This document shows, one piece after another, positions 3,459 to 39,064 of a stretch of DNA of 64,000 nt. A model generated the notes under the pieces. It made no database searches. It was not told the origin of the DNA and saw nothing but the letters and a program-made list of their open reading frames with translations. Each line of letters opens with the position of its first letter. The first letter of the stretch is position 1. The stretch comes from an uncultured virus (IMG/VR IMGVR_UViG_3300035501_001058). Its lineage: Duplodnaviria > Heunggongvirae > Uroviricota > Caudoviricetes. Location of the stretch: the IMG/VR virus record IMGVR_UViG_3300035501_001058. One strand, written 5' to 3'. Both the position numbers and the translations under genes were made by a program.

Positions 3459-3491
3459 GAGCTATAGTGTAAAAGCTATAGCTCTTCTTTG
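3459..3491 (+). terminator. Conserved-core hairpin (AGTGTAAAAGCT family)
   Basis: GAGCTAT-AGTGTAAAAGCT-ATAGCTC then TTCTTT. Confidence 0.75.
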
Positions 3492-3515
3492 TTAAGCTAA
3501 TTAGGAGGTAATACG

Positions 3516-4235
3516 ATGTATAGAAGAGAAGAACTTTCTGAATGTGAACTAATGATCATGAAGTGCGTTTGGGATGCTAACAAACCAATATCATGTTATG
3601 AAATAATGGAACAATTAAGAATAAAATATGGGCTTGAATATAAGGATACAACAGTATACACTTTCTTGAGTAATTTAAAAAAGAAAGGTTTTGTAAAATC
3701 TTTCCGTAAGGGAGTTACTTTTTATGAACCTGCGAGGGATATGGAAGAGTTTAGAGATACCCAGATTGAAAAAATGGAAGAGTTTTGGGGAATCGAGATA
3801 GAAGATGCAAGTTCCGGTAAAGACCGTAATAAAATTAAGCCTGTAAAAAACACATTTAACAATCAGCTAGGTCATAGTGAGGCAGATATACGACATATAC
3901 AAAAAGCAGTAGACTATCTTGTTTCTCTAGAGGGTAAACTACAGCATGGTCTGCTTTGTAATTTCCCTATTAAAGTAGGAGACAAGGTACAACTTGATTT
4001 ACAGTGTAAGCAGATATTAAGAAATATGAATAGCTCAGATGGTGCTCTTTCCTGCCCATTTAGTGAAGAATGCAATTACGAATGCGATTGTGATAACCAT
4101 ACACAAACATTTATAGGAACTGTTGAATGTATTATGAATGAGGGTTACGGATGGTATTTCACTATTAAAGAGTCAACAGAGCTATATTCTATGGAATCAG
4201 TTGGGGTAACTATTAAAGTAATTAGGGAGGAATAG
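3516..4235 (+). CDS. BlaI/MecI/CopY-family wHTH regulator fused to a Cys-rich domain
   Basis: LSECELMIMKCVW...TTVYTFLSNLKKKGFV is the BlaI pattern; C-terminal half has PIKVGDKV and CPF...C.Y.C.C. Confidence 0.8.
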   Translation: MYRREELSECELMIMKCVWDANKPISCYEIMEQLRIKYGLEYKDTTVYTFLSNLKKKGFVKSFRKGVTFYEPARDMEEFRDTQIEKMEEFWGIEIEDASSGKDRNKIKPVKNTFNNQLGHSEADIRHIQKAVDYLVSLEGKLQHGLLCNFPIKVGDKVQLDLQCKQILRNMNSSDGALSCPFSEECNYECDCDNHTQTFIGTVECIMNEGYGWYFTIKESTELYSMESVGVTIKVIREE

Positions 4236-4237
4236 AA

Positions 4238-4840
4238 ATGCAGCTTATAAGGCGAGTACTAACAATACTGTACTTGATTGTTAATGCCTTTATAATTAGT
4301 ATATTATGGCTTTTACTATGCAATAATGTTTTTAATTGCACAACGAATAGAATAGTCTTTAGTTTAATGTTGATTGTATTTTTTATCATAATCACATTTA
4401 TTTTTTCTAAATATTATGATTATATTAAAGGTAGTTATTACTTAGAAGATTCTATTGATAGTACAAGAGATAGCTTACATTTAGAAAATGAAGATCCTTC
4501 AGCTTTAGACAAAGAGTTATGGAATTCATGTAGACTATATCTTTCGAGGATATTATACAATAATGAAGGTAATTTAGCAGGAATGGAGTACTTCAAGTTA
4601 GGTGCCTTTGAACAAGATGAAGCAGAGTGCCCTTTTGAGATTTCAACATCTAAAGAGTTCTTAACCGGATGGTTAATTTTTGATTTGCAATCAGAAAAGG
4701 TTATAATAGAGGGTGAATACAGTAGTGAAGAGCTAAAAACTATTGCAAAAGAGTTTACTGCATATTGTGTAGCTAATTCTATTGGTAGAAATGAATTAGA
4801 TTTCAAACATTTAGATGAAGCCGCTGAAGATGAAAGATAA
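4238..4840 (+). CDS. Membrane protein (two N-terminal TM helices)
   Basis: Two hydrophobic segments then an acidic soluble domain. Confidence 0.7.
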   Translation: MQLIRRVLTILYLIVNAFIISILWLLLCNNVFNCTTNRIVFSLMLIVFFIIITFIFSKYYDYIKGSYYLEDSIDSTRDSLHLENEDPSALDKELWNSCRLYLSRILYNNEGNLAGMEYFKLGAFEQDEAECPFEISTSKEFLTGWLIFDLQSEKVIIEGEYSSEELKTIAKEFTAYCVANSIGRNELDFKHLDEAAEDER

Positions 4841-4854
4841 GGAGGAAAACGCTA

Positions 4855-5202
4855 ATGGCAGAGAATAACTATAAGAAACTTATTCATTTCAATAAGTGGG
4901 TCGATTATTTCATTTGTAGGCAACATTATTTTGATTATGATGAATGGACACATAAGCATTACATAAAGTGTAAAGCTAAAGGCATAGATATTCAGGACGC
5001 TGACTCCTATTCTGTCTTATCAAAATATTTTGGTGTTGAACTTACGAAAAAGGAGTTTAATACTATTATGGCATGCCTAGAAGAAAATGATAGATGTGCT
5101 TTTGACGTGAATGAGCGAGATTGTGAAGAAGTACTACTTAATTGTATAGTAGATAATAACTTACCGTTACTTACGCAGGAAGAAATGTTAGAAGTAATAT
5201 AA
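4855..5202 (+). CDS. Hypothetical protein
   Basis: ORF with AGGAGG RBS. Confidence 0.75.
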   Translation: MAENNYKKLIHFNKWVDYFICRQHYFDYDEWTHKHYIKCKAKGIDIQDADSYSVLSKYFGVELTKKEFNTIMACLEENDRCAFDVNERDCEEVLLNCIVDNNLPLLTQEEMLEVI

Positions 5203-5210
5203 AGTTTTTA

Positions 5211-5239
5211 TTGAAATGCACTTAAGTGTATTTTATAAT
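5211..5239 (+). promoter_or_regulatory. SigA-like promoter of the AbiEii-like module
   Basis: TTGAAA-17 bp-TATAAT, 20 bp upstream of ATG 5259. Confidence 0.6.
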
Positions 5240-5258
5240 CTCAGACAGGAGGTATAAT

Positions 5259-6546: not shown

Positions 6547-6616
6547 GAAGAATACTACAGTAGAATAGCAGCCGGTGAGACTGTAATTCCAGTAAAACCG
6601 AAATTAGAATTGATAG

Positions 6617-6646: not shown

Positions 6647-6670
6647 TATGCAAAAAAAAGGAGAAGATTA

Positions 6671-7276
6671 ATGAAGAAGAGAATGATAGTTGTTAGTTCA
6701 ATTATAGCACTGTTAAGCCTTACAGCATGTTTGGGTAAAGTAAATCCCGATAAATATAAAGATGATGTTAATAGTTTCCTCGAATCAAATTATGATGAAG
6801 CTTTTACATGCACAGGAAGTGAGGTTGTTGATAGTGATAAGGAGCAATATCGATACTATTACAGTACCACCGATAGAGATTTAGATTTTGAAGTTGTGAC
6901 ATACGAAACTGATGATAATAAAATAGCATGTTCTACTACATACTATGATGCTATCTCTAAGCTTTATCAGGAAGATATTGAAAATACTATTAGTGAATGT
7001 AATCTTGATTATAATTCATCCACAAAAAAGTTAGTTGTTAGAGATTATGATAAGGTTGCATCAGCATTAGCAGCATGTAATGCTATTTATAGCGTAGAGA
7101 ACCAATACCATAGTGGAGGAATTTACACAGAAGCACACAGTGCTCTAGATATAGCATTATACAAACCTGACTCAGAAGAATGTATTTTCACGTATAGTAT
7201 TAATGGAACTGATACGGAGGAAGATATTTTATACTATATAGATTTAATGTTTAATGCTAGTGAGGGCAATGAATAA
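6671..7276 (+). CDS. Putative lipoprotein
   Basis: MKKR, hydrophobic helix, LTAC lipobox. Confidence 0.8.
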   Translation: MKKRMIVVSSIIALLSLTACLGKVNPDKYKDDVNSFLESNYDEAFTCTGSEVVDSDKEQYRYYYSTTDRDLDFEVVTYETDDNKIACSTTYYDAISKLYQEDIENTISECNLDYNSSTKKLVVRDYDKVASALAACNAIYSVENQYHSGGIYTEAHSALDIALYKPDSEECIFTYSINGTDTEEDILYYIDLMFNASEGNE

Positions 7277-7833
7277 TGTTGATAAAAAGATTAAAAGCAA
7301 TTGGGTTTATGGTCTTAGGATACTCGCCAATCATAGCAGGAATAATAGTTTTGCTATATATTTGGTGTATTAGATTGCCATATCAAAGCTCATTTTATTA
7401 CTATGATAGCTATGTATACTGTAGTGACTGCCAAGTATCTCTTGGTGCTGATAATAAATTTTGTCCACAGTGTAGTAAAACAATAGAAGAAATTGCATCT
7501 GTTATGGAATACAAGCATTGTTCATTCTGCAATTCAAATGTATTGTACAAGAACGATAGTACTAATTATTGTAAAGAGTGCGGGAAGGAGCTGACAGGAG
7601 GGAATCCAGTAAAGTTAAGCAATCTCGGATTTAGTTCAGTCAAGGACTTTAGAAATGCGAAAACTGAAGATAACACTTATAGATTGATTTCAAATAAGTT
7701 TATTGCAAGTATTATTACAATAATTGTAGTGATAATAGTTTATGGTACAATAAAGCAATCTATGATCAACGCTTTAAATAAAAAGATCATTAAACAGGGA
7801 ATTGCTAATAGTAAAAAAATAAAAGACTACTAG
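7276..7833 (+). CDS. Membrane protein with double zinc-ribbon domain
   Basis: Four CxxC pairs (CSDC, FCPQC, CSFC, YCKECG) between two TM helices. Confidence 0.75.
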   Translation: MLIKRLKAIGFMVLGYSPIIAGIIVLLYIWCIRLPYQSSFYYYDSYVYCSDCQVSLGADNKFCPQCSKTIEEIASVMEYKHCSFCNSNVLYKNDSTNYCKECGKELTGGNPVKLSNLGFSSVKDFRNAKTEDNTYRLISNKFIASIITIIVVIIVYGTIKQSMINALNKKIIKQGIANSKKIKDY

Positions 7834-7919
7834 ACAGAAGATGGAAGTAGGAAATTTAAAAGTTTCCTACTTTATTTATTGTATTGTGAATAGAAAAATG
7901 ATACAAGGAGGAAACATAA

Positions 7920-8081
7920 ATGAAAGCAGTAAAGATAGAATGGGTAGAAAGCAATTCTTATAATGTAAAAGATTTACCAACTGAGATAGTTTTACCTGAT
8001 AATATTGCTGATAAGGATGAAGCTATTGATTATATTTCGGATAATTTCGAGTATGGTTTTTATGATTTTAAATTAGTATAG
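7920..8081 (+). CDS. Small hypothetical protein (53 aa)
   Basis: Read by eye: MKAVKIEW...DLPTEIVLP...AIDYISDNFEYGFYDFKLV*, AGGAGG RBS. Confidence 0.7.
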   Translation: MKAVKIEWVESNSYNVKDLPTEIVLPDNIADKDEAIDYISDNFEYGFYDFKLV

Positions 8082-8226
8082 AAGATGTTCTCAAATTTTT
8101 AAGAGATGATGAAAGTACAAATTTATCCATTTAGAAGGAATGCAATGGAAATATTTGCGGCAGACAAATATCTATAAATTCAGAAATGAAAATATTAAAA
8201 AAACATAATATTATAAGGAGGAAATA

Positions 8227-8442
8227 ATGATAAAAGCAAAAGTGCAGTTATCACTTACTGTTACACTGAATGTAGAAGCTGAAAACGAAGAAAGGCTAGG
8301 AGAGTGGTTAAGTGAAAATACACCAGCTGATGTTATAAAACTTCTTGCTGAAAATGGAAAAAATTATTCATCTAAATGTAGTTATGATGAAGAAATTCTC
8401 CAATTTTTAAGAGATGATAGAGGTGTAGATTTAGTCATTTAG
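8227..8442 (+). CDS. Small hypothetical protein
   Basis: ORF with AAGGAGG RBS. Confidence 0.75.
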   Translation: MIKAKVQLSLTVTLNVEAENEERLGEWLSENTPADVIKLLAENGKNYSSKCSYDEEILQFLRDDRGVDLVI

Positions 8443-8489
8443 AAGGAACACAGTAGAGATATTTGTCTACGACAAATAGTTAAGGTGGC

Positions 8490-9584: not shown

Positions 9585-9650
9585 AAAACGGAATGATAAG
9601 GAAGCAAAAGCTTCCTTATTTTATTGCAGTAAACAAGGAGGAATTTAATA

Positions 9651-10861: not shown

Positions 10862-11285
10862 ACATCGTAAGATGTCTCCTCCGTAGCAGGAAAGATACCC
10901 CTTTCCTGTGTTAAAAGTTTTAGCCTTTGTTAGTGTCAAAGCTAACAAAGGTTTTTGTAAGTATGCACAGTAACCCGTGTGTATTTACATGAGATGTCAG
11001 TCTCAAAATCCCCGCCAATAACTTTGGTAAAGTAACAGAGGAAGGTATCCTCCTTTCTCGCTCATCTAGTGAATTCCCCTATTTACTAGAGGGATAAGTA
11101 GCTTAACTGGGAAAGCATCGGCAGAGTCATTGGTTCAAGTCCAATCTTATCCCATGGTGATTTTAATCACCTTTCTTTCCATTGAGGATCCAGGGCAGCT
11201 AAAAGGCTGCCCATCCTTTAACGCAATTAACTTTTTTACTTTTTCCTTCCTGAGATGGCTTAGTTTTTGAACTAAGCCATCTTTA
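10862..11285 (+). ncRNA. Putative multi-hairpin regulatory RNA cluster
   Basis: About 10 consecutive stems with G-U pairs only on the + strand, C-rich loops and linkers, upstream TATAAT at 10821, no credible ORF. Confidence 0.6.
11091..11154 (+). ncRNA. tRNA-like element lacking the anticodon arm
   Basis: GGGATAAG/CTTATCCC acceptor, TA, D arm GCTT-AACTGGGA-AAGC, T arm ATTGG-TTCAAGT-CCAAT; only 12 nt between D and T arms. Confidence 0.8.
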
Positions 11286-12106: not shown

Positions 12107-12122
12107 TGTTAATAGATACACA

Positions 12123-12443
12123 GGAGAATAAGGTACAACAGCTTTATTCTCTTTTTCGATGTAGTGAAATAACTCAGTGTTATTCTGTTGCATCTTGTAG
12201 CCATTTATTAAATTCTATTACTACAACATTTCCTTTCAATTAAAATGTAATAGTTTTGTGTACTCACACAATTTGTAAATAAAATATGATGGCATGTGAT
12301 AGAGTTTAATAAATGGCCTAAATTAAGAAAGAGTTAGTGTTTACTAGATTATTAAATGCAAAAGTTTATGATTTATTTATCGTCGATGTTTTGAAGTCCT
12401 TCCTGTGGGTAGTAGTTTTCTACTACCCGCAATTTGCATTTAG
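12123..12443 (+). other. Structured non-coding region (terminator plus long stems)
   Basis: Hairpin 12123-12156, 22-bp stem 12200-12221/12296-12317, GTGGGTAGTAG-TTTT-CTACTACCCGC. Confidence 0.5.
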
Positions 12444-12849: not shown

Positions 12850-12853
12850 ATTA

Positions 12854-12886
12854 GGAGCGAATAGTATAAAAGCTATTTGCTCTTTT
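12854..12886 (+). terminator. Conserved-core hairpin
   Basis: GGAGCGAAT-AGTATAAAAGCT-ATTTGCTCT then TTT. Confidence 0.75.
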
Positions 12887-13109: not shown

Positions 13110-13334
13110 TAGCTACTAGAAGCATAATAACTTCTGGTAGCTTTAGAAAATAGTAGGCTATAAGTCTTTAAACTATTTGACAATTCTCCCCCAGAAGTTT
13201 AAATTAGAGGTAGAGGGCACAAAATAATAACTTGAAATAGAAAATAAAACCGAAATGAAGAGATTTCGTTATTATCTTAAATTAAGGTAACAAAATAGAA
13301 ATCTTTGTTTATAAATGGAAAGGAAGGAAGAATT

Positions 13335-15347
13335 ATGAAGATTAAAAGTTTAATTATTGGAGCAGTTATAGCATTAGCTGTTATCACAGGAATTAGCACC
13401 ATGCCAAGCACACAGGCAGCGAGCACACAGGAGCAGAGCAGTAACTCAGCGGAATTAATGGGTAATACTTACAAGGTTAAAAGTAAAGATGACGGTAAGG
13501 TGTACGTATTCAAGAATGGTAAGGTAATTACTAAAAAGGGTTGGTACAAGGTTGGTGGATACTATTACTATGTAACAAACAATAAAGGTCAGATAACAAA
13601 AAAATACGGTAGTAAACATTACTACAATTACAGTAAGGGCTCTTGGGTTAAGGTTACATCTGGAATAGCACAAAAGAAAAACGGAAAATACTATTATTAC
13701 AACAGCAATGGTAACATAGCTACAAAAGCAGGTTGGAAGTTAAATAGCAAGGGGAGCTATACATACTATGTAAAGAATAAGACAGGTGTAGTAACAGCAA
13801 GAATTTACAAGAAGAGTTATCAGAAATGGAATAATAACAAAGGTACCTGGAAAACGTTTAGAAAACTTACAAAGACACCAACAAAATACAATGGAAGATA
13901 CTTTGCTGTAATTAGTAATAAGGTAGTTTCAGGTAAAAATAAAACCACTTTAGTTAGTAAAGTTACAACTAAGAAGGTTAACGGTAAGTCAATAACAATA
14001 AAGAAAGCTACACAGAATGGTAACAGTGTTACTATTTACACAGGTGACAAGGATGACAGAACAACAACAGTTGCTTCTGATGGCACAGTTACTATTAAAG
14101 ATGGTGGTAAAACTACTAAAGTGCAGACTAACACAGCCTACAGCATTGGTGGTGAGATTAAGCTTGTTGATGAAGATGGTAAGGTTGTGAGCGAAAAAAA
14201 TCCAAGTAAAAAGCTTCATGTAGCACCTTTAGAGAGTACCGATGATGATACAACATACTATCTGTTTGATAAGACTGGTAATGTTCAGACTCTGAAAATC
14301 TTAACAGCGTTTACAGCTAATGTAGAAACTTACGCAAAGTTGCAGAGTATTGGAAGTGCTAATACAGAAACTGTACAGTTATACAATGCATCTGATGAGA
14401 CTATTCTTATTTTTGATGAAACAGGAAAACAGATAGATGCTGAAGAGCTCGAAGCAAACGTAGCAATTTGCACTATGAGACTACTTTCAAACGGAAAGTA
14501 CTATTACTATGGCGCTGACTTAAAGAAAGACACAACTAAAGGCTGGAAAGTTAGTACACAGGGAGAAGACACTTGGTACGTAGGTGGCAATGGATACATT
14601 ACTTACAGAATTCTCAAGGGTTATTTACAGCAGTTTAGTAATGGTAAATGGGTTAGTGTAGAAACCAAGAGTGGCTCTAAGAATGTAGGCGGTAAAACTG
14701 TAAAGACAAAGAAGTCTGAGAAGGAGCCTGACACAACTGAAGCAACAACAGAGCAGAGTACAGTATCAACAGAAGTTGACAGCAATTGTAAGCATTCATG
14801 GGATGATGGTTGGAATAGTTATTCTATACTCCACAAGGCTGTGACTGAGACTGAAGAGTACACAATAGATGCAGTATACAATCCAGTAAAAACAGATGGA
14901 TACTGCTGTAATAGCTGTACCAGATCAGGTCTGTCTGATGATGATGCGTGGTTCGAAACTACTACAGAATTACATGCTCACTGGGATGCGACAAACCATG
15001 GTGGATATCATGCATACGAGAAAGTCACATCATACGAGTTGGTAACTCCAGAAAGGAAAGAAACCAGAGAAGTTGTAGTCTCAGGTAAGGATGCATGGGT
15101 TGAAGAGCATGCTTATTACAAGTGTACTAAGTGTAATGCAACAAAAGAAAAACGTGTATATGTAGACCCAGATACTGATGCTCGATACTCAAGTGGTACC
15201 GTAGTACAGAGTTATTATTACAGTTCAGCTGGAGTTTTGCGTGAGAAAACTATATATGATGGTGGTTACAAGAGTGTAGTGGATTGGAGTGATCCAGACG
15301 CTTTCATAGCTAGTTATACTACATCAACTGTATACGATGAAAGATAA
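13335..15347 (+). CDS. Secreted or surface protein with aromatic cell-wall-binding-like repeats and a Cys/His C-terminal domain
   Basis: Signal peptide; repeated GW.K..G.YYY motifs; T/E linker; CCNSC...H...H and CTKC. Confidence 0.75.
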   Translation: MKIKSLIIGAVIALAVITGISTMPSTQAASTQEQSSNSAELMGNTYKVKSKDDGKVYVFKNGKVITKKGWYKVGGYYYYVTNNKGQITKKYGSKHYYNYSKGSWVKVTSGIAQKKNGKYYYYNSNGNIATKAGWKLNSKGSYTYYVKNKTGVVTARIYKKSYQKWNNNKGTWKTFRKLTKTPTKYNGRYFAVISNKVVSGKNKTTLVSKVTTKKVNGKSITIKKATQNGNSVTIYTGDKDDRTTTVASDGTVTIKDGGKTTKVQTNTAYSIGGEIKLVDEDGKVVSEKNPSKKLHVAPLESTDDDTTYYLFDKTGNVQTLKILTAFTANVETYAKLQSIGSANTETVQLYNASDETILIFDETGKQIDAEELEANVAICTMRLLSNGKYYYYGADLKKDTTKGWKVSTQGEDTWYVGGNGYITYRILKGYLQQFSNGKWVSVETKSGSKNVGGKTVKTKKSEKEPDTTEATTEQSTVSTEVDSNCKHSWDDGWNSYSILHKAVTETEEYTIDAVYNPVKTDGYCCNSCTRSGLSDDDAWFETTTELHAHWDATNHGGYHAYEKVTSYELVTPERKETREVVVSGKDAWVEEHAYYKCTKCNATKEKRVYVDPDTDARYSSGTVVQSYYYSSAGVLREKTIYDGGYKSVVDWSDPDAFIASYTTSTVYDER

Positions 15348-15349: not shown

Positions 15350-15399
15350 AATAAATAGATAGATAAGACCAGAGAGTGTAAAAGCTTTCTGGTCTTTTT
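15350..15399 (+). repeat. Direct repeat A1 containing a conserved-core terminator
   Basis: 48/50 identical to 18970-19019. Confidence 0.9.
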
Positions 15400-15913
15400 A
15401 GGTGAAAGAATAAATATCAAGTGTCCTAGCATAAGGTAGAGCATTATACTGTATGCATTGATAAGTAATACTCATAAGAAATTTAAACAGATTATTGCAG
15501 ATGGTCATGTACTTTTCTAGAGATTTATGCTTCTTAGCATACTCAAACACTACCTTTAGGCGATAGATATAGGTAGGTTCTGGATGTTCGTTATGCAAGA
15601 TGAATGTATCTTTCAGGCATTTAGTGCAATCAAGAAATCTCATTTCAGAGTTTTCTTTAAGAGAACCAATAGAATTTATTGGGGCTAAAATAAATTGTAC
15701 TGTGCTGGATAATTTATTGCATAATTGCTTATTATAATTTCGCATAGGATTATTCTCTGTGTAGCTACTAAGGTAATTCAGTGTGTTGAGATTTAGGTAA
15801 TAGCAGATTACTTCTTCTTTATTGCAGTAGTTTTTTGCTAAGAGCGTTGTAAAAAAGTCCTCTTCTTTACTATACAGATCTTTTATTTTATCTTTATCTT
15901 TATCTGTTAGCAT
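15398..15913 (-). CDS. Hypothetical protein
   Basis: 171-aa ORF with GAAAGGA RBS and no competing plus-strand ORF. Confidence 0.75.
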   Translation of the reverse strand: MLTDKDKDKIKDLYSKEEDFFTTLLAKNYCNKEEVICYYLNLNTLNYLSSYTENNPMRNYNKQLCNKLSSTVQFILAPINSIGSLKENSEMRFLDCTKCLKDTFILHNEHPEPTYIYRLKVVFEYAKKHKSLEKYMTICNNLFKFLMSITYQCIQYNALPYARTLDIYSFT

Positions 15914-16064
15914 GGTATCATTCCTTTCATCATAGTTTATAGGTGATTTGCTAGAATCACCTATAAACTATATAACATAAAAATTTTAAATTGTCAATCA
16001 ATAAAGAAATAATTATAGAATAATCAGAATTTAAAAACAATTGTCAAGAAAGGAAATTAAAACA

Positions 16065-16352
16065 ATGGAAATTAACAAAATGAACAGAAATGATTTAATC
16101 AAAATGATTAAAAAACACCCACACAGAGTTATGCATCTCGATAAGCAGGATGCTGAGATATGCAAAGTAGCTTTGGATAGCAACTTTAGAGTTTTGTGTG
16201 TTATTAGAGAGCAGACAGAAGAATTGTGTCTTTATGCTGTGCGAAAGAATTGGGAAGCAATTCAGTACGTTAGAGAACAAACACCTGCTATAATACAGGA
16301 AGCGTTAAAGCAGTCTAGTAATGCAAGCTACTATGTAGATGCAACAGCATAA
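16065..16352 (+). CDS. DUF4116-like helical repeat protein
   Basis: Repeats of QT.E.C..A...N..A..Y. Confidence 0.65.
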   Translation: MEINKMNRNDLIKMIKKHPHRVMHLDKQDAEICKVALDSNFRVLCVIREQTEELCLYAVRKNWEAIQYVREQTPAIIQEALKQSSNASYYVDATA

Positions 16353-16355: not shown

Positions 16356-16390
16356 AGGACCAGAGAGTATAAGAGCTCTCTGGTCTTTTT
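16356..16390 (+). terminator. Conserved-core hairpin, copy A2 (probably bidirectional)
   Basis: GACCAGAG-AGTATAAGAGCT-CTCTGGTC between convergent genes. Confidence 0.8.
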
Positions 16391-16395: not shown

Positions 16396-16893
16396 TTAAT
16401 TACTACGGGTAATGCAAGGGTAAGCATAATAATTAAGGTCGACAACTCTTATTTCTTTGCTATAACCCAAGCGTGCACTATTTCTAGTAGTAACATTATA
16501 AAGTACAGACAGAAACAGACAGATGGTTTGTAACTTAGTAATTTCAGCTATGAGCTGCATGTTGTTTGTTTTGTATCTTAAGTTAACTAGACTAGTTTCA
16601 ATTTCATTTAATTTCTTGGGACAGAAATTAATATCTTTGTAGTAATAAGCATTAAATCCTTTTCTAAGTGATGTTGCTCTGTCGGACTTACTGTAGCAAT
16701 AATGAGTCTCTGTGTTTTTAAACAGTTCAGTGTTTAGTAGATAAGCGCAAGGCGAAGCAACAGCACTCCACTCATTAGAGTTATTCTGGATATTCTGATT
16801 ATACTGAATGTTGAGTAAGTAACCTTTTATGTATGCTATGTTAAAATATTCGGATAATAATTTATAGTAGTATGTAGTGATTGTATTTTCCAT
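16396..16893 (-). CDS. Hypothetical protein
   Basis: ORF with GAGGTG RBS before ATG 16893; upstream TTGAAT...TGtTATACT on the minus strand. Confidence 0.7.
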   Translation of the reverse strand: MENTITTYYYKLLSEYFNIAYIKGYLLNIQYNQNIQNNSNEWSAVASPCAYLLNTELFKNTETHYCYSKSDRATSLRKGFNAYYYKDINFCPKKLNEIETSLVNLRYKTNNMQLIAEITKLQTICLFLSVLYNVTTRNSARLGYSKEIRVVDLNYYAYPCITRSN

Positions 16894-16996
16894 TAGGTTC
16901 ACCTCATTTGTTGATTGATTATAATGAGTATAACAGAATTGAGTAATAATTCAATGAATTTTATGAAAAAATCATTGAATTGGATGAGTGGAAATT

Positions 16997-17031
16997 AGGA
17001 CCAGAGAGTGTAAAAGCTTTCTGGTCTTTTT
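16997..17031 (+). terminator. Conserved-core hairpin, copy A3
   Basis: GACCAGAG-AGTGTAAAAGCT-TTCTGGTC then T run. Confidence 0.8.
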
Positions 17032-18974: not shown

Positions 18975-19019
18975 ATAGATAGACAAGACCAGAGAGTATA
19001 AAAGCTTTCTGGTCTTTTT
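18970..19019 (+). repeat. Direct repeat A4 containing a conserved-core terminator
   Basis: 48/50 identical to 15350-15399. Confidence 0.9.
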
Positions 19020-19124
19020 GTTTACCTAATTAATGGTAAACCATCTCGATTTCTTTTTTTGTAATTTGGGAACTTAAAGTAATTTAAGAAAAATAATTTA
19101 TGCAAAGACAAGGAGGAAGAGGCT

Positions 19125-25898: not shown

Positions 25899-25921
25899 GT
25901 AATTCCCAAATTACAAAATCA

Positions 25922-25955
25922 GGAAAGGGTAGTATAAAAGCTACCCTTTCTTTTT
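25922..25955 (+). terminator. Conserved-core hairpin
   Basis: GGAAAGGGT-AGTATAAAAGCT-ACCCTTTCT then T run. Confidence 0.8.
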
Positions 25956-26817: not shown

Positions 26818-27267
26818 ATGCTAGGTTCAATTTATTATTGGGATAAAAAATTGCTGCCTTTGATCTTTGAACAATGTTCTTCGATAGTTTGTGATAAATA
26901 TAATATAAATAATTTGGATACTGTACAGTTTTTGACAGATTTTATGAAATCTAAGCTACGTAAGGAGATGGATGAACAATTTTATGGCCTTCTTAATGAT
27001 AGAGCAACAATAGTAATACAAAAATATATTACAGTAGATTTAGACAGTAATTTAGATTTAATTAAATCAGCATCTAATGAGTTTGAAGGACAATACACTT
27101 TACATTGGTGCGGATTGTTATATGCATACATTAGAGAAGAGTCTAGAATGTATTCAAGTGAAATTATTGAGAGATTTCCTATAGAAAGGGCCATTCAATT
27201 TTATACGATAGGACATGAGATGTCTTTAGCAAATTGTTGGAATAAAATAAAGAATTTGTTTAGTTAG
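26818..27267 (+). CDS. Putative antitoxin or partner of DUF3990
   Basis: F...FMKS..R..MD, W.G.LYAY and Y...HE pattern; adjacent gene. Confidence 0.6.
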   Translation: MLGSIYYWDKKLLPLIFEQCSSIVCDKYNINNLDTVQFLTDFMKSKLRKEMDEQFYGLLNDRATIVIQKYITVDLDSNLDLIKSASNEFEGQYTLHWCGLLYAYIREESRMYSSEIIERFPIERAIQFYTIGHEMSLANCWNKIKNLFS

Positions 27268-27300
27268 TAGAGAGTAGTGTAAAAGCTACTCTCTATTTTT
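27267..27300 (+). terminator. Conserved-core hairpin
   Basis: GTAGAGAGT-AGTGTAAAAGCT-ACTCTCTAT then T run. Confidence 0.8.
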
Positions 27301-28786: not shown

Positions 28787-28804
28787 ATAATGGAGGTTAA
28801 ATTT

Positions 28805-29815
28805 ATGAAAATAAAAAGAATTATTGCAGGAGTATTATCTGCCATATTGCTGTTGTGTATTGTTCCGCAAATATCTGTTAAAGCTGCTAGTACAACAACA
28901 ATAAACTTTGCAGAGCTTAAAGTTACTGAACTTAGTGATATGGACGACATTGGCATGAAAGCCGAGGGTTCTTGGTCAGTCGCCTGGAATTTTACTGATT
29001 CAAAAGATGGAGAAGAACAGTATAGCTATGGCAAATTTACCATTCCCAAGGATAGTATAGTGTGTATAAGTGCTTCAGTTGAAAATCCAGGCACCTTTCC
29101 AACTTATAAATACTATTTATATGGGACAGAAAGTATGGGTACAGAAATAGACCATCAGCATAATGGAACAGGTGTATTTGATACTAATTATACTGATGTA
29201 AGATATACTTACTATGAATTAAAAGCTGGTACTTATTATGTAAAGTCAGTGTGTAATTCAGAATTTTCTGACTATGTAAAAGATGCTTATTCTAAATTAA
29301 CAATTGCTTATGTACCTACTGATAAATCTGTTAAGTTTTCTAAAAAAGTTAATAAGACTAAAACAAAGACAACTGTTACTGTTAATGAAAAGTTTATTTT
29401 TGGAGAAGCTTATAGCTTACAATATGTAAAAGGTAGAGTTGGTGCTAATGATAGTAGCTGGAAATCTGCTAAAGATATTTCAACTGCAACTAATTCTTTT
29501 ACGGTAAGTAAGAATGGTTGGTATACAATAAAAATAAAGGATAAACAGAACGGTACATATTGGTATAGATATGTAAAAATCACAGGTATAGATAAAACTA
29601 AGCCAACAGTAACAGGTGTCAAAAATGGAAAAAAGTACAAAAAGACTGTCACCATCAAATTCAAAGACAACAAAAAGGGTAGTGGTATCAAGAAAGCTAC
29701 ATTAAATGGCAAGAAGATTAAATCAGGGAAGAAAGTATCAAAGAAGGGTAAGTATACTTTAGTAGTAACAGATAAAGCAGGAAACAAAAAGACTATTAAG
29801 TTTACTATTAAATAA
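28805..29815 (+). CDS. Secreted protein with Ig-like and basic C-terminal domains (paralogue 1)
   Basis: Signal peptide ending VKA; DKTKPTVTGVKNGKKY...GKYTLVVTDKAGN. Confidence 0.8.
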   Translation: MKIKRIIAGVLSAILLLCIVPQISVKAASTTTINFAELKVTELSDMDDIGMKAEGSWSVAWNFTDSKDGEEQYSYGKFTIPKDSIVCISASVENPGTFPTYKYYLYGTESMGTEIDHQHNGTGVFDTNYTDVRYTYYELKAGTYYVKSVCNSEFSDYVKDAYSKLTIAYVPTDKSVKFSKKVNKTKTKTTVTVNEKFIFGEAYSLQYVKGRVGANDSSWKSAKDISTATNSFTVSKNGWYTIKIKDKQNGTYWYRYVKITGIDKTKPTVTGVKNGKKYKKTVTIKFKDNKKGSGIKKATLNGKKIKSGKKVSKKGKYTLVVTDKAGNKKTIKFTIK

Positions 29816-29829
29816 TGGAGGTTATATTT

Positions 29830-30813
29830 ATGAAAATAAAAAGAATTATAGCAGGAGTATTAGCAGTTATATTACTTTTAGGTATTGTTCCATTATCATC
29901 GGTTAAAGCCGCAACTAGTTTTGAGACTTTAAGGGTAACTGAACTCAGTGATATGGACGATTTTAGTGTAAAAGCAGAGAAGTCATGGGAGATTAAGTGG
30001 AATTTTACTGAAGAGCAGACTACAGAACAATCATATTATGGTAAGTTTACCATAACTAAGGACAGTAGAGTCTGTATAAGTGCTAATGTAGAAAACCCAG
30101 GAAGTGTTCAAAAGTATACATATTATTTATATGGTACTGAAAGTATGGGAACAGATTTAGACAGTCAGGAATATGGATGCTGGGTTCTTTACGAAGATGA
30201 AGTAAGATATACATATTACGACTTAAAGGCTGGTACTTATTACATAAAGAATACATGCAAGCTTAATGGAAAGAGTTCTATAAGTGGTGCAACATCAAAG
30301 ATGATTATTGCTACAGTACCAAGTAATAAAGATACTAGTTTTTCTCAGAAGGCTAATAAAACTAAAACAAAAGTAACAGTTAATGTTAATGAAAAGCTTC
30401 TTATTGGTGAACCATACAGGATACAGTATTTAGAGGGTAAGGTAAGCAGTAATGGTAATTGGAATTATTCTACCAATATAACAGCAACTAAATCCTTTAC
30501 AGTAAATAAAAATGGTTGGTATACCGTTAGATTTGAAGATAAAGAATGGGGAACATATTGGTATAGATATGTAAAAGTAACGGGAATAGACAAAACCAAA
30601 CCAACAGTGACAGGCGTTAAGAATGGTAAGAAGTATAAGAAAGCTGTTACGATAAAATTCAAAGATAATAAAGGTGGTAGTGGTATTAAGAAAGCCACTC
30701 TTAATGGCAAGAAAATAAAGTCCGGTAAGAAAGTATCCAAAAAGGGCAAATACACTTTAGTTGTAAAGGATAAGGCAGGTAACAAAAAGACAATTAAGTT
30801 TACAATAAAGTAG
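29830..30813 (+). CDS. Secreted protein with Ig-like and basic C-terminal domains (paralogue 2)
   Basis: Tandem paralogue of 28805-29815. Confidence 0.8.
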   Translation: MKIKRIIAGVLAVILLLGIVPLSSVKAATSFETLRVTELSDMDDFSVKAEKSWEIKWNFTEEQTTEQSYYGKFTITKDSRVCISANVENPGSVQKYTYYLYGTESMGTDLDSQEYGCWVLYEDEVRYTYYDLKAGTYYIKNTCKLNGKSSISGATSKMIIATVPSNKDTSFSQKANKTKTKVTVNVNEKLLIGEPYRIQYLEGKVSSNGNWNYSTNITATKSFTVNKNGWYTVRFEDKEWGTYWYRYVKVTGIDKTKPTVTGVKNGKKYKKAVTIKFKDNKGGSGIKKATLNGKKIKSGKKVSKKGKYTLVVKDKAGNKKTIKFTIK

Positions 30814-30818
30814 TTAGA

Positions 30819-30851
30819 GGAGAGGGCAGAATAAAATCTGCTCTTTCTTTT
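30819..30851 (+). terminator. Intrinsic terminator (variant core)
   Basis: GGAGAGGGC-AGAATAAAATCT-GCTCTTTCT then T run. Confidence 0.7.
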
Positions 30852-31158: not shown

Positions 31159-31340
31159 ATCCTGTGCAGTACTTAGTTTTGATTGAAAATTCAGCAAACT
31201 AAGATGAAAATGTTAATAAATGGTTAAAAATCTTGATAGTTTGTTGGGTGAAAAACCTTAAAATGTTACTGTTGAAATTATTATAATATAAGATAAAAGT
31301 AAATAGATAAACAAGATGATAAGCAAAGAGCTTTATTATA

Positions 31341-31612
31341 AATAACCGTTTTGGTGATTCTTCCTTTAGGTGTGACTAGTGTAACAGCTAGTCACATTTT
31401 TTGTTGCTAAAAATATAGCAACAGTACAGTATCTATAGAGTTTGTTACACCTTTTTCCCATTCCTCTAATGGATACTGTAAGTACAGCTAGTATAGTAGC
31501 TAGCTGTATTTTCACCTCTCTTTTATTTGGGTAGCTGGTAAAACAGCTACCTATTTGTATTTAAGATGATTATTACTGGGCAGTTAGTCTACAAACGGTC
31601 TTCCTGTCTTTT
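31341..31612 (+). ncRNA. Second putative multi-hairpin RNA cluster
   Basis: Five or six stems separated by CU-rich tracts; G-U pairs favour the + strand; no ORF. Confidence 0.5.
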
Positions 31613-31653
31613 AAGTTTTTTAACTTAAAATAATTAAAGAAGGAGTGACTAAT

Positions 31654-32688: not shown

Positions 32689-32709
32689 TTAATATTAATT
32701 AAAATTCAC

Positions 32710-32745
32710 GGGAGAACCTAGTGTAAAAGCTAGGTTCTTTCTTTT
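32710..32745 (+). terminator. Conserved-core hairpin
   Basis: GGGAGAACCT-AGTGTAAAAGCT-AGGTTCTTTC then TTTT. Confidence 0.8.
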
Positions 32746-36668: not shown

Positions 36669-36709
36669 AACAATTAGCAGGCCTCTGTAGAAATACAGAG
36701 GTTTGTTTT

Positions 36710-37588
36710 ATGGAGAAAAATATGAAAAGGAAATTACTTATAGTTTTGAGCATAATTATTATATTGATAAATGCTCAAGGAAGGTACATGATTTCAGAGG
36801 CAGCAGATAATTACACAGAGTTAAGGTATGATCAAACTAACTTAACTAAAGGCAAGTATGAAAAAAGATGTAGTATGAAATGGAAAATAGAAGTGTACTA
36901 CGATGATCAATCTTTGGAGGCTTTTACTCCAACTAAGAAAGAATTTAGCCAAGCTGCACAATTGTGGAAAAGGTTTTGCAGTTTAAAATCTAATCAAACT
37001 TTACATCTTAACTCAAAAAGGGATTATAAAAACTTATCACATCTTATGGGTATAATAAATGCAAAATACTTAGCATACATAGGACTAGTTTATGCTGGAG
37101 GTGAGAGCGACGGTATAGTTACTATTAGCGTTAAAGGAAAAAATGTACAAAAAGCAATTAAGCAGAATAATAAATTTAAAAAGAAATGTGAAGCTGTAGT
37201 TCAAAGTTTAGGTATAAACAAGAAAACAACAGAGCATGATGCAGCATTACTAATAAATAATTACCTTATAGATAGAATAGAATATGAAGAGAATACCATT
37301 GATGATTATAAAAAGTATGAAGATTTTGTTGCAATTTATACAGGAAAAGGGATTTGTGAGGATTATGCAAGAGCTTTTTATTTTCTCACTAAAACATGTG
37401 GAATTAAATGTGGCTTAATCTATGACAATGTAATTTCAGGTGGGCATGCCTACAATGTTGTTAACATAGGAAGAAGAAATTTCTACATAGATGTCACTTG
37501 GAGTGATTCTGTCAATAATAATTCTTACTTTATGGTAAGTAAGAATTATATTTTAAGAGAACATACTATTTCTATTTTATATTGGTAA
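36710..37588 (+). CDS. Secreted transglutaminase-like domain protein
   Basis: GICEDYARAF, HAYN and YIDVTW give the Cys-His-Asp triad; signal peptide. Confidence 0.85.
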   Translation: MEKNMKRKLLIVLSIIIILINAQGRYMISEAADNYTELRYDQTNLTKGKYEKRCSMKWKIEVYYDDQSLEAFTPTKKEFSQAAQLWKRFCSLKSNQTLHLNSKRDYKNLSHLMGIINAKYLAYIGLVYAGGESDGIVTISVKGKNVQKAIKQNNKFKKKCEAVVQSLGINKKTTEHDAALLINNYLIDRIEYEENTIDDYKKYEDFVAIYTGKGICEDYARAFYFLTKTCGIKCGLIYDNVISGGHAYNVVNIGRRNFYIDVTWSDSVNNNSYFMVSKNYILREHTISILYW

Positions 37589-37602
37589 AGAAAGGAGATA
37601 AT

Positions 37603-37821
37603 ATGGAGGATTTAAAATCTTTTAATGGCAACAGCGATGTTGCAAGAAAAATGGCAGCACAGATGAGCTATTGTAAGGAGAACCACGCACCTTATTTTGT
37701 ACCTAGTAGTGGTACTTGCTATAATTGCGGAATACAGATCTATGACAATTATGATTTAGAATACTGTGGTAAAAATTTAATAACTGGGTGTCCCCGTTGT
37801 CATATAAGCTACTGTGAATAA
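37603..37821 (+). CDS. Small zinc-finger protein
   Basis: CYNC and ITGCPRCH.SYC. Confidence 0.75.
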   Translation: MEDLKSFNGNSDVARKMAAQMSYCKENHAPYFVPSSGTCYNCGIQIYDNYDLEYCGKNLITGCPRCHISYCE

Positions 37822-37859
37822 TTTAGGGAAATCTAGTGTAAAAGCTAGGTTTCTTTTTT
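37822..37859 (+). repeat. Direct repeat B1 (conserved-core terminator)
   Basis: 38/38 identical to 39027-39064. Confidence 0.92.
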
Positions 37860-37887
37860 TAAAAGTTTATGCTATAGTGAAGTAGAG

Positions 37888-38721
37888 GTGATAGATGTGA
37901 ATAGCATGGATTGTTTCAGTAACAGAAAAGTTTTTAATACAAATAATTTAATAGAATTGCAAACAAACACTTCATCAAAAGGTAATCAAAAGAAATGGTA
38001 TGATCCTATTAATAAAATCTATGTTAAAGAGAGATTTTTATATCAAGATGTTTTTTGGAAAGATGATTTGGTTGAGATTATTGGCTCTAATATAGGTAAT
38101 CAATTAATGTTGAAAAATACCATAGTAATAAATCAAGAGTTAGCTGAAATTGTAGGTGAGGGTTATCATAGATTTGGTGTTTGCTCTAGGGATTTTAATA
38201 AAGATGGTTTTCGTTTTATTTCATTTGCTAAATTATCAAATATTGTAGGTGAAGAATTTCCTGAACATATTAGTTTAGAAGGCATGTGGGAGTTTATTTT
38301 AGACTTTTATGAAAGACACACTAAATTAGATTTACGGGAATATTTTATAGCTATGAGCATAATAGATTTTATAGTAGGAAATGAAGACAGACATTTTGGT
38401 AATTTTGGATGTTTAACTAATGATAAAGAATACAAAGTAGCTCCATTATTCGATTTCGGTTTAGGATTATTTGAACATGATAGAAGATATTTAGACATTC
38501 CTTTTATAATAGCAAAAAGAAAAATGTCATTTTTACCTTTCACAGTAGATGAAAAAAAAGTAATTGAATATCTTTCTAAAAGATATAATGTAGAGGATTT
38601 CCTGCCAAAATTTTTTGATTGTACTGATTTGGTTTTTCCGTCGGCAAATGCAATAGAATATTTTAAATATGCATCCAGTTATCTTGGGATAGAATTGAGG
38701 AATTTAAATGATAAGATATAA
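37888..38721 (+). CDS. HipA-like (HipA_C/CtkA-type) kinase toxin
   Basis: SSKGNQKKW; DFIVGNEDRHFGNFG; APLFDFG. Confidence 0.85.
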   Translation: MIDVNSMDCFSNRKVFNTNNLIELQTNTSSKGNQKKWYDPINKIYVKERFLYQDVFWKDDLVEIIGSNIGNQLMLKNTIVINQELAEIVGEGYHRFGVCSRDFNKDGFRFISFAKLSNIVGEEFPEHISLEGMWEFILDFYERHTKLDLREYFIAMSIIDFIVGNEDRHFGNFGCLTNDKEYKVAPLFDFGLGLFEHDRRYLDIPFIIAKRKMSFLPFTVDEKKVIEYLSKRYNVEDFLPKFFDCTDLVFPSANAIEYFKYASSYLGIELRNLNDKI

Positions 38722-39025
38722 TGATGTTGGTGGTATTATTATGAAAAATGATACACCATTAGTGGAGTTTAAATATAGGCAAAGCAGATTAATTAAAGTC
38801 AAGCTACTTACTGATGTAAACAACTTGCCTATAGAATATAAAGGTGTACTTAATAAATATCGTGCTACAGATTTATTTCTGCGGGATAGAATTACACCAC
38901 CTACTAGGCAGTTCATTAATGAAGATTTAAAAAAAGTTGGAATAGCATACTATGATCCTGATGCTATGTTAAAATTGAATAAAGGTAGAAACATGGAAGA
39001 TCAATATTGGGTTGATATGAAATGA
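38708..39025 (+). CDS. Putative partner resembling the HipA N-terminal (HipS-like) subdomain
   Basis: FL.DRI.P..R...L...G...D.YW pattern; overlaps the kinase gene. Confidence 0.6.
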   Translation: MIRYNDVGGIIMKNDTPLVEFKYRQSRLIKVKLLTDVNNLPIEYKGVLNKYRATDLFLRDRITPPTRQFINEDLKKVGIAYYDPDAMLKLNKGRNMEDQYWVDMK

Positions 39026-39026
39026 C

Positions 39027-39064
39027 TTTAGGGAAATCTAGTGTAAAAGCTAGGTTTCTTTTTT
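39027..39064 (+). repeat. Direct repeat B2 (conserved-core terminator)
   Basis: 38/38 identical to 37822-37859. Confidence 0.92.

Follow-up and report, generated by a model that had tools for sequence, protein, structure and literature searches.

Terminator-like hairpins with a conserved GUAAAA loop at gene ends of a giant gut mobile element encoding a fused RNA polymerase

The DNA analysed here (the window) covers 64 kb of a roughly 191-kb contig, which derives from a giant gut mobile element, probably a phage. The element encodes its own RNA polymerase, a fused beta-beta' protein, and carries a tRNA-Trp gene at positions 56-128 of the window. Its host would belong to the Clostridia. A preliminary description of this DNA had reported a family of terminator hairpins sharing one core, an observation that was confirmed overall. 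The covariance-model scan that it had called for was performed with a model, R1, members that score at least 32 bits being counted as strong. It detected 22 members in the window, 18 of them strong and four weaker, and without exception on the + strand. They are listed below, together with one exact copy of the core that has no hairpin.

145..182, + strand: weak member, 16-bp hairpin with a 10-nt loop including CTAAAA, 17 nt past tRNA-Trp (R1 20.1 bits; fold -23.2 kcal/mol)
1338..1369, + strand: weaker member, loop GTAAAT / TAAA, 2 nt past the stop of ORF 988-1335 (R1 26.1 bits)
3456..3487, + strand: AGT-GTAAAA-GCT cap, 10 bp paired (3459-3484) (R1 45.8 bits)
7843..7874, + strand: weaker member, U.G-closed TTAAAA loop, 9 nt past the stop of ORF 7276-7833 (R1 25.8 bits)
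10922..10953, + strand: AGT-GTCAAA-GCT cap, 13 bp (R1 42.5 bits)
12122..12153, + strand: GGT-ACAACA-GCT cap, 13 bp (R1 33.9 bits)
12853..12884, + strand: AGT-ATAAAA-GCT cap, 13 bp (R1 45.0 bits)
15365..15396, + strand: AGT-GTAAAA-GCT cap, GACCAGAG stem, left copy of a 50-nt direct repeat (R1 47.4 bits)
16356..16387, + strand: AGT-ATAAGA-GCT cap, GACCAGAG stem (R1 46.5 bits)
16997..17028, + strand: AGT-GTAAAA-GCT cap, GACCAGAG stem (R1 51.7 bits)
18985..19016, + strand: AGT-ATAAAA-GCT cap, 10 nt past the GmrSD-like gene, right copy of the 50-nt direct repeat (R1 45.5 bits)
25921..25952, + strand: AGT-ATAAAA-GCT cap, after the gene of a 2257-aa surface protein (R1 51.4 bits)
27266..27297, + strand: AGT-GTAAAA-GCT cap, overlapping the stop of ORF 26818-27267 (R1 48.4 bits)
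30818..30849, + strand: AGA-ATAAAA-TCT cap (R1 39.6 bits)
31368..31399, + strand: AGT-GTAACA-GCT cap, first of three in the 486-nt gap 31159-31644 (R1 47.8 bits)
31480..31511, + strand: AGT-ATAGTA-GCT cap (R1 32.8 bits)
31525..31556, + strand: CTG-GTAAAA-CAG cap, 10 bp (R1 32.6 bits)
32710..32741, + strand: AGT-GTAAAA-GCT cap, after the M15 peptidase gene (R1 44.2 bits)
37825..37856, + strand: AGT-GTAAAA-GCT cap, left copy of a 38-nt perfect direct repeat (HipA-like module) (R1 49.1 bits)
39030..39061, + strand: AGT-GTAAAA-GCT cap, right copy of the 38-nt perfect repeat (R1 50.0 bits)
42273..42304, + strand: core-block member, U.G-closed TTAAAA loop, outside the model's training set (R1 35.8 bits)
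48401..48412, + strand: exact 12-mer lacking a hairpin, within ORF 48247-49176, outside the family (10.4 bits)
58577..58609, + strand: TGT-TAATA-GCA hairpin, starting 1 nt past the fused RNA polymerase gene (R1 26.9 bits)

The core sequence AGTRTAAAAGCT was found 11 times in the window, always on the + strand, against 0.07 matches expected from 100 shuffles. Ten of these copies cap hairpins (at 3466, 12863, 15375, 17007, 18995, 25931, 27276, 32720, 37835 and 39040), and they recover, in the same orientation, all ten of the exact-core hairpins listed previously. The eleventh, at 48401-48412, corrects the statement that no exact copy lies beyond 39.1 kb, though it lacks a flanking stem and is probably due to chance. 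The one-base variants (cores at 10932, 16366 and 31378) and the looser variants near 12135, 30831 and 31493 also proved to be hairpins built on the family plan. The family reaches the core block (42273-42304, 58577-58609) and the left end, with weaker members at 145, 1338 and 7843. In the hairpin at 42273..42304, the TAA of the TTAAAA loop is also the stop codon of ORF 42059-42289.

As had been described, the hairpins tend to follow a stop codon and to precede a T run. Fourteen of the 22 members start within -17 to +22 nt of the stop codon of a co-oriented upstream gene (distances taken to mechanically called + strand ORFs), and a T run follows all of them. Two hairpins lie between convergent ORFs: the one at 15365..15396 between ORFs 13305-15347 (+) and 15398-15913 (-), and the one at 16356..16387 between ORFs 16041-16352 (+) and 16396-16902 (-). 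Seven of the 22 come close to, or extend into, the following start codon (distances of -9 to 45 nt). Complete termination at these seven would silence the next gene, and they may therefore be attenuators, or processing or stability elements.

Folding with RNAfold gave stable stem-loops, with dG values of -13.8 to -21.4 kcal/mol for 16-17 window hairpins. Exactly 13 bp and a 6-nt loop were predicted for 14 of 17 of them (13 of the 16 listed by loop position, plus the hairpin at 12135). An ungapped alignment was built from 28 hairpins, 17 from the window and 11 from relatives. As previously claimed, the stems stay paired: 98.4% of the 364 stem cells of the alignment pair, and this value drops to 44-56% when the partner is slid by 1-3 columns. 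Both sides vary at all 13 stem pairs, although part of this covariation arises by construction, since the alignment rows were chosen from hairpins. The claim that the outer stems differ completely was too strong, as four hairpins have GACCAGAG in common and two do not differ at all over 38 nt. Of the 364 stem cells, 72 (about a fifth) are G.U or U.G wobbles, which indicates that the structure works as RNA of the + strand, and not as DNA, on one strand only. The closing pair is U.G in 22 of the 28 hairpins. The six loop columns read R (20 G, 8 A), U (27), A (27), A (27), A (24) and A (28), a pattern that, judged from the letters, would be compatible with a sheared R.A pair followed by a UNR U-turn. 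The loop is GUAAAA or a G-starting one-letter variant of it in 20 of the 28. Past the stem, T occupies columns 34, 36 and 37 in 90% of the rows or more.

The A-rich hairpin of HIV-1, a retroviral element, base-pairs with the anticodon of a tRNA. Its structure (PDB 1BVJ) is said to be the work of Puglisi and Puglisi in 1998. Its six-letter loop, GUAAAA, is identical to that of the present family. This loop is presented as a solved U-turn that looks like an anticodon loop and whose A tract lies on the 3' side (PMC1694020). Here, the six letters are carried by terminator-like hairpins and not by a retroviral element.

The same hairpin plan, with other closing pairs, was found in distant relatives that also encode a fused beta-beta' RNA polymerase, an uncultivated lineage of gut elements of 55-670 kb. 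Their polymerases are 32-38% identical to P0071, the query used to fetch them, which is itself about 33% identical to the polymerase of the window. Their loci, which are partly redundant, contain 22 R1 matches of at least 32 bits in 474,562 bases, all co-oriented with the polymerase gene. A TGT-GTAAAA-GCA hairpin follows the polymerase gene, at the same relative place as the window's hairpin at 58577..58609. In the relatives, a ribosome-binding site lies 2-4 nt past the hairpin, and in some of them the U run is only 3-5 nt long. The preliminary description had considered that relatives might not conserve the core; the loop is kept. Its claim of fixed AGT/GCT closing pairs applies to this genome, where the same three pairs occur in 13 of 17 window hairpins, but not to the relatives, which have TGT/GCA, GGT/GCC, ATG/CAT and other triplets, AGT/GCT being limited to this genome. 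Among distinct hairpins, the stem measures 13 bp in eight of 13 from the window and in nine of 14 from the relatives. The stems of other capped terminators range over 8-18 bp, a comparison biased by the scan settings, in which the T run had a fixed place 7-8 nt behind the cap.

In 3.3 Mb of control DNA, no R1 match reached 30 bits; the bacterial loci (1.52 Mb) gave a best score of 24.3 bits, and other viral contigs encoding an RNAP (1.79 Mb) one of 29.7 bits. Matches with E <= 0.01 occurred in 33 of 151 Clostridia genomes, with a maximum of four per genome. The 12-mer reached at most 12 copies per genome among 401 Clostridia, vs 11 in the 64-kb window alone; the core is thus not equally common in chromosomes of the likely host class, whereas equal frequency is what the preliminary description had named as contrary to its proposal. 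In a census of hexaloops on stems of at least 9 bp, GTAAAA accounted for 8 of 46 in the window, 25 of 340 in the relatives, and 4 of 715 and 2 of 544 in the controls. Among terminator-like hairpins, NTAAAA was present in 9 of 25 in the window vs 2 of 284 and 1 of 192 in the controls; loops were diverse in the 476 control hairpins, three of which had NTAAAA. IMG/VR was scanned for caps with the same T-run anchor throughout, counting the matches that are tips of terminator hairpins. Such tips made up 66 of 111 matches for AGT-RTAAAA-GCT, 45 of 118 for AGC-GTAAAA-GCT, 43 of 114 for ACT-GTAAAA-GGT and 71 of 116 for AGA-GTAAAA-TCT, against 1 of 119 for a permuted and 0 of 120 for a reversed loop. 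The core can consequently no longer be viewed as an element-specific signal, since GTAAAA, closed by any of four triplets, is found at the tips of terminators in bacterial genomes as well as in many unrelated viral contigs. In full-text literature searches, neither this cap nor the terminators of these elements turned up as the subject of a paper, although such papers may exist.

These structures are probably the hairpins of Rho-independent terminators or attenuators, which follow a template shared by the lineage and are tipped by a U-turn loop. They resemble intrinsic terminators in having a GC-containing stem-loop followed by a U run, in being co-oriented with genes just past their stops, and in occurring also between convergent genes. 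They differ from usual ones in that one loop (RUAAAA) and one stem length (13 bp) dominate the genome and its relatives, and from full-stop terminators in that many window hairpins lie too close to the next gene. The hairpins would act as RNA on + strand transcripts. In their template, 5'-AGG would pair with YUU-3' at the base, followed by a middle of free sequence and by two closing pairs, first G-C and then U.G; the loop R-U-A-A-A-A and a U run would complete it, the total stem usually being 13 bp. The loop would adopt the GUAAAA U-turn hexaloop fold solved in another context (PDB 1BVJ). Genes and small operons, chiefly those of the cargo region, would have their ends marked by such hairpins, which would also insulate cargo genes. 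Part of the transcription must pass the hairpin wherever only 24-45 nt separate it from the next ribosome-binding site. The RNA data covered were metatranscriptome contigs of low depth, a kind of data that does not show transcript ends. Transcripts presumably do end at these hairpins, the loop may have been selected as a pre-organised cap and/or as a contact point for the transcription machinery, and the polymerase that reads them could be that of the host or that of the element. As parts of this same explanation, the template would be common to the whole lineage of large elements encoding a fused beta-beta' RNA polymerase, and GUAAAA would be a generally favoured terminator tip of phages and bacteria on which the lineage has become fixed. 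Of the earlier interpretation, terminator-like RNA hairpins with a constrained tip are retained, whereas the element-specific signal is not, and a recombinase site is judged unlikely.

A different role for the loop, which we regard as possible but doubtful, is that a protein of the lineage specifically recognises the cap: the fused polymerase, a termination or antitermination cofactor comparable to N on boxB, or an RNase that measures the hairpin, the 13-bp stem serving as a ruler from loop to U run. The share of NTAAAA loops in the window relative to controls, the three closing pairs fixed within this genome and the frequent 13-bp stems speak for it, although the stem-length comparison carries the bias of the scans mentioned above; so does the retention of the template despite polymerase identities of only about a third between the relatives and the query P0071. 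The same GUAAAA loop, however, tips terminators of many unrelated phages and bacteria in which this polymerase is absent, the closing pairs vary among relatives, and the family searches of the window returned neither an RNA-binding nor an antiterminator family, most ORFs matching no family at all. The lambda boxB has a purine-rich, A-rich loop on a variable stem, read by a small protein that alters termination; it consists of a 5-bp stem with a GNRA-like pentaloop, lies with boxA just past promoters, and occurs about twice per genome. The present hairpins number about 20, lie at gene ends and have 13-bp stems and U runs. A lambda-type nut site was rejected on these boxB features, the window hairpins combining a hexaloop, a 13-bp stem and a U run and lying at gene ends. 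For 14-bp terminators in E. coli, GAAA and UUUC loops are reported to differ in no consistent way (PMC7445774), so that better termination through a better loop is not established; indifference of the E. coli polymerase to the loop on long stems also leaves room for another loop reader. A purely structural cause leaves the same three closing pairs (13 of 17) and the frequent stems of exactly 13 bp unexplained.

The hairpins might instead be intercistronic punctuation for mRNA stability or processing, i.e. protective 3' or 5' hairpins or cleavage sites in long transcripts, which we judge improbable. The seven hairpins nearest to a start codon leave no space for a sigma-70-type promoter, ribosome-binding sites directly follow the hairpin in relatives, and some U runs are short. 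The T run is nevertheless among the most conserved features, whereas a stability hairpin would need none, and hairpins between convergent ORFs recall bidirectional terminators. RNase III processing hairpins, as in phages T7 and SP82, have a long stem of about two turns, often with an internal loop, and are cut at defined bonds; the perfect 13-bp stems of the window are shorter and simpler, without internal loop, and this candidate was set aside. Highly improbable, in our view, is a role at the DNA level, as attC-like recombination sites or cassette-exchange junctions whose core would be the crossover or recognition site of a recombinase. Near-identical hairpin copies do surround cargo modules: segments 15350-15399 and 18970-19019, 96% identical over 50 nt, enclose a 3.6-kb module with the GmrSD-like gene, and segments 37822-37859 and 39027-39064, 100% identical over 38 nt, enclose the HipA-like module. 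Likewise, relative L663 has a 1,095-nt gene insertion right after the post-polymerase hairpin, with a decayed hairpin copy at its right end, and relative L656 has no insertion. Such duplications can, however, arise as a by-product of recombination between similar terminators. The integron attC sites are folded imperfect palindromes with variable sequence but conserved structure, found in one orientation after each cassette gene; their conserved R and L boxes lie at the base, and they have a variable tip and extrahelical bases. Here the tip, not the base, is conserved and the stems are perfect. If crossovers occurred in the tip, arms that are not complementary would be joined, whereas nearly all stem cells are paired; in DNA, moreover, the G.U wobbles would amount to mismatches. 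Of the 63 window ORFs compared with Pfam (64 kb of the roughly 191-kb contig), none matched an integrase or recombinase family, and an integron attC site was discarded as a candidate; the T run and the placement at stop codons fit transcription. In T4-type phages, PeSL (promoter-early stem-loop) cassettes are repeated regulatory stem-loops on either side of accessory genes, located in plastic regions, and seem to mediate the shuffling of modules. The duplicated window hairpins flank cargo modules in a similar way but, unlike PeSL, have no conserved promoter attached; moreover, stems differ between most copies of the family, so that there is little homology for recombination.

A bolder form of the terminator explanation, which we put forward only tentatively and think rather unlikely, would make the GUAAAA U-turn loop a sequence-specific working part of intrinsic terminators. 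It would be read by the transcription machinery, generally by a conserved RNA polymerase surface or NusA, and here by the fused beta-beta' polymerase or a cofactor measuring 13 bp from loop to U run, so that one design would have become obligatory in the lineage; the same hairpins would act as junctions for the insertion and swapping of cargo.

Terminator loops are usually treated as free sequence. As far as can be read from its DNA, the present element seems to end most of its genes with near-identical hairpins tipped by GUAAAA. This loop is far commoner on phage terminator tips than its scrambled controls (43-71 of about 115 matches for each cap vs 1/119 and 0/120), and an uncultivated lineage uses it on a stem of fixed length for most gene ends, which argues against a free loop. 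If the loop is functional, it would add a sequence-specific layer to intrinsic termination and would provide a marker for transcription units in these elements. It would also offer synthetic biology a compact, naturally diversified terminator design, with a fixed tip and base and a free middle.

The window holds 11 copies of the core AGTRTAAAAGCT (the exact AGT-RTAAAA-GCT 12-mer), all on the + strand. This number, against 0.07 copies expected, together with the covariation of the stems, rules out chance or simple duplication as their origin. Complementary arms flank ten of the copies, in agreement with the preliminary description, which also held that no exact copy lay past 39.1 kb; an eleventh is in fact found at 48401, inside an ORF and without a stem. 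Folding showed that the one-base and looser variants proposed at the same time are hairpins of the same plan, and for 14 of 17 window hairpins RNAfold predicted a stem of exactly 13 pairs topped by a 6-nt loop (dG -13.8 to -21.4 kcal/mol). When Rfam was searched for a known RNA family at E <= 1, two tRNA matches only were returned. Outside the family, a terminator-like hairpin at 9596-9619 (+), AAGGAAGC-AAAA-GCTTCCTT, resembles the family cap minus its first two loop letters.

The 17 window hairpins and 11 hairpins of relatives were aligned without gaps over 40 columns. Pairing was observed in 98.4% of the 364 stem cells, with both sides varying in all 13 stem pairs, and was 44-56% when the partner was slid by 1-3 columns; since the aligned sequences had been selected as hairpins, this covariation is partly by construction. 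The closing pair was U.G and the next pair G-C in 22 of 28 sequences each, the pairs at the stem base were A-U, G.U, and G-C or G.U, and the loop columns (n=28) read R (G20/A8), U27, A27, A27, A24 and A28. The covariance model R1 was used for the scans listed here.

Matches of model R1, by target
Window, 64 kb, filters off: 18 matches at or above 32 bits, all +
Window, 42270-42309 (+): one of these 18, new, 35.8 bits
Window, 58574, 1335, 7840 and 142 (+): weaker matches
Loci of relatives, 474,562 bases (22 loci, partly redundant): 22 matches at or above 32 bits, all +
Control loci from bacteria, 1.52 Mb: top score 24.3 bits
Further viral contigs that encode a polymerase, 1.79 Mb: top score 29.7 bits
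Five unrelated viral records, 11-233 kb: 1-4 matches each at E <= 0.1
Clostridia, 151 genomes, E <= 0.01: at least 33 genomes matched, at least 44 matches, at least 4 in the top genome (43 candidates scored per genome, so that the counts are a floor)

The scan of relatives that had been proposed as a check thus recovered the family there. A metagenome scan with P0071, a distant fused beta-beta' polymerase of this family, had given 36 loci, each oriented so that the + strand encodes the polymerase. In relatives, GTAAAA hexaloops cap stems of 12-13 bp on the + strand only, and one such hairpin often lies directly 3' of the polymerase gene. Their closing triplets include TGT/GCA, GGT/GCC, ATG/CAT, AAA/TTT, TGG/CTG and AGT/GCT, and the post-polymerase hairpin of the window itself (58577-58609) is TGT-TAATA-GCA. 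The closing pairs, earlier described as fixed, are fixed as a triplet within this genome but differ among relatives.

With regard to genes, 14 of the 22 members begin -17 to +22 nt from the stop codon of a + strand ORF (ORFs called mechanically). One member is preceded by a tRNA-Trp and two are flanked by convergent ORFs. Three members in a row (31368, 31480 and 31525) occupy a 486-nt ORF-free stretch, 31159-31644, where they may form a multiple stop or mark cassettes that have been lost. In seven members the next start codon lies -9 to 45 nt from the hairpin (overlap or at most 45 nt), too short a distance to fit a sigma-70-type promoter. The hairpins of relatives are often followed, 2-4 nt further 3', by the start of a GGAGG-type ribosome-binding site. 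The idea that the TAA of the loop ends the upstream gene was rejected, since this is so in only one of 102 capped hairpins from IMG/VR and GTDB loci and one of 22 in the window (42273). A priming signal on the lagging-strand template was dropped in view of the clustering in the cargo region and the position at stop codons, and a cis pseudoknot between loop and U run was dropped by reasoning alone, on geometry (13-bp stem, no linker). Four metatranscriptome runs contained contigs 100% identical to parts of 19.1-39.1 kb; these are of low depth and cannot show transcript ends, and none of the pieces listed spans a hairpin.

The loop was also sought beyond the element, by scanning IMG/VR for a cap with a T run 7-8 nt downstream; a match was counted as a hairpin tip when at least 5 further pairs flanked the cap.

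Hairpin tips among the IMG/VR matches listed
AGT-RTAAAA-GCT: 66 of 111, at least 36 distinct stems
AGC-GTAAAA-GCT: 45 of 118, at least 16 distinct stems
ACT-GTAAAA-GGT: 43 of 114, at least 29 distinct stems
AGA-GTAAAA-TCT: 71 of 116, at least 50 distinct stems
AGT-AATGAA-GCT (permuted loop): 1 of 119, 1 stem among them
AGT-AAAATG-GCT (reversed loop): 0 of 120, 0 stems among them

Among the GTDB matches listed, 36 of 120 were hairpin tips, over several phyla. The loop alone is thus generally favoured. In one viral terminator the closing position is T in contig L044 and C in contigs L518 and L551. When hexaloop hairpins (stems of at least 9 bp) were counted without the T-run anchor, GTAAAA made up 8/46 in the window, 25/340 in relatives, and 4/715 and 2/544 in control sets. 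Of the distinct hairpins, 8 of 13 in the window and 9 of 14 in relatives have a 13-bp stem, and stems elsewhere spread over 8-18 bp, a comparison biased by the T-run anchor. What is special to the element is its near-exclusive use of the loop, the fixed stem length and the closing triplet fixed within this genome.

The window has a GC content of 30-37% and a positive GC skew throughout, and its + strand carries nearly all ORFs. Cargo-type genes lie at 1-39 kb and a tightly packed gene block begins at 39 kb.

1-39 kb, cargo region: surface proteins of 2257 aa and 1279 aa; AbiEii-, GmrSD- and HipA-like genes; two DUF3990 genes, an SSB and an M15 peptidase
39971-41077 (+): TubZ/PhuZ-like tubulin (Pfam TubZ_C_3 and Tubulin; phrog_17961), start of the packed core block
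47003-48235: NAD-dependent ligase, packed core block
49882-58575 (+): fused beta + beta' multisubunit RNA polymerase, a single 2897-aa ORF with seven Pfam RNA_pol domains

The fused polymerase shares only about 26% identity with cellular rpoB/rpoC. An identical one is on record in a 191,278-base contig, and 144 related ones are on record in contigs that range from about 8 kb to about 760 kb. Close relatives were not found in phage/plasmid collections, IMG/VR or GTDB representative genomes, two of these searches having used generic peptide patterns that returned mostly ordinary or distant polymerases. In the stretches examined no virion gene was seen, and the element may be a phage or a plasmid. 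A distant relative, L661 (7309-8562, 9857-18007, 22816-26790), has the same gene order as the window, namely NAD ligase, fused polymerase, large unknown protein and DNA polymerase, a sign that replication and transcription genes form a conserved module. Tandem paralogous genes at 28790-29815 and 29815-30813 (+; 341 and 332 aa, with signal-peptide-like starts) are 72-85% identical in DNA, in register about 1 kb apart. A 90-nt direct repeat (8081-8170 and 8389-8478; 77% identical, 308 nt apart) covers two intergenic regions upstream of small ORFs. Rfam scored a tRNA at 11092-11153 (+) with 44 bits; its anticodon arm is mostly missing, ARAGORN made no call, and a truncated tRNA or tRNA-like remnant is possible. 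The same 682-nt gap contains one family hairpin.

Named homologues of the M15 peptidase come from Clostridia and Lachnospiraceae genomes and in some cases carry dockerins, which makes a gut clostridial bacterium the probable host. The core is not equally common in chromosomes of this class: the exact 12-mer reached at most 12 copies per genome in 401 Clostridia genomes, against 11 in the 64-kb window, and a host-wide motif is unsupported for Clostridia by this count and by the R1 scan of 151 genomes. Inspection of 11 of the 12 copies in the 5.7-Mb Clostridium genome that has this number showed two at hairpin tips and one in a tRNA-Ser variable arm. At the Clostridium locus L321 (G006:C42:16891-17102), the 12-mer AGTGTAAAAGCT, read by eye, forms the variable-arm tip of a tRNA-Ser(GCU)-like gene, and the same cap is thus used in a structural RNA.

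Taken together, the hairpins are rather probably intrinsic terminators or attenuators built on a lineage-wide template, the tip of which is a generally favoured, predicted U-turn hexaloop. The GUAAAA hexaloop was solved as the HIV-1 A-rich loop (PDB 1BVJ), with a U-turn resembling an anticodon loop in the description of PMC1694020, and the pattern R-U-A-A-N-A would fit a sheared R.A pair and a UNR turn. The simplest reason for the loop would be a pre-organised cap that speeds hairpin nucleation; set against this, 14-bp terminators with GAAA and with UUUC loops showed no consistent difference in E. coli (PMC7445774). Literature searches found no published work on the GUAAAA cap or on terminators of these elements, and terminators are not mentioned in the passages retrieved from the mReC phage paper and from a jumbo-phage review.

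Recognition by a specific protein could be read into the triplet kept within this genome; with triplets that vary among relatives and a loop common elsewhere, we regard it as doubtful. Hairpins standing so close before the next gene would be leaky stops, or would have a stability or processing role as well, and for some copies such a role is possible. Recombinase sites are unlikely. Some hairpins do flank cargo modules. Wobble pairs make up 72 of the 364 stem cells, and so large a share means that the fold belongs to the + strand RNA; DNA, or the transcript of the other strand, would form it less stably.

As to the junctions, the 50-nt stretches 15350-15399 and 18970-19019 match at 96% identity and enclose a 3.6-kb module with two inner hairpin copies and a GmrSD-like gene. 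The only sizeable minus-strand ORFs of the window, 15398-15913 (-; 171 aa) and 16396-16902 (-; 168 aa), both without an assigned family, each end beside a + strand family hairpin inside this module. A HipA-like module lies between 37822-37859 and 39027-39064, which are identical over 38 nt. In L663, among relatives about 90% identical, a 1,095-nt insertion (18603-19697) that is absent from L656 and L654 directly follows the post-polymerase hairpin. It carries an extended -10-like promoter stretch, a gene for a P-loop (GPNGSGKST) protein and its own hairpin/terminator, with a decayed hairpin copy at its right end. The P-loop protein is zeta-toxin-like by eye, and the insertion is a typical 'moron', located just past the hairpin of the polymerase gene. 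These three cases, which are not a test, suggest that the putative terminators are preferred junctions for the gain of cargo.
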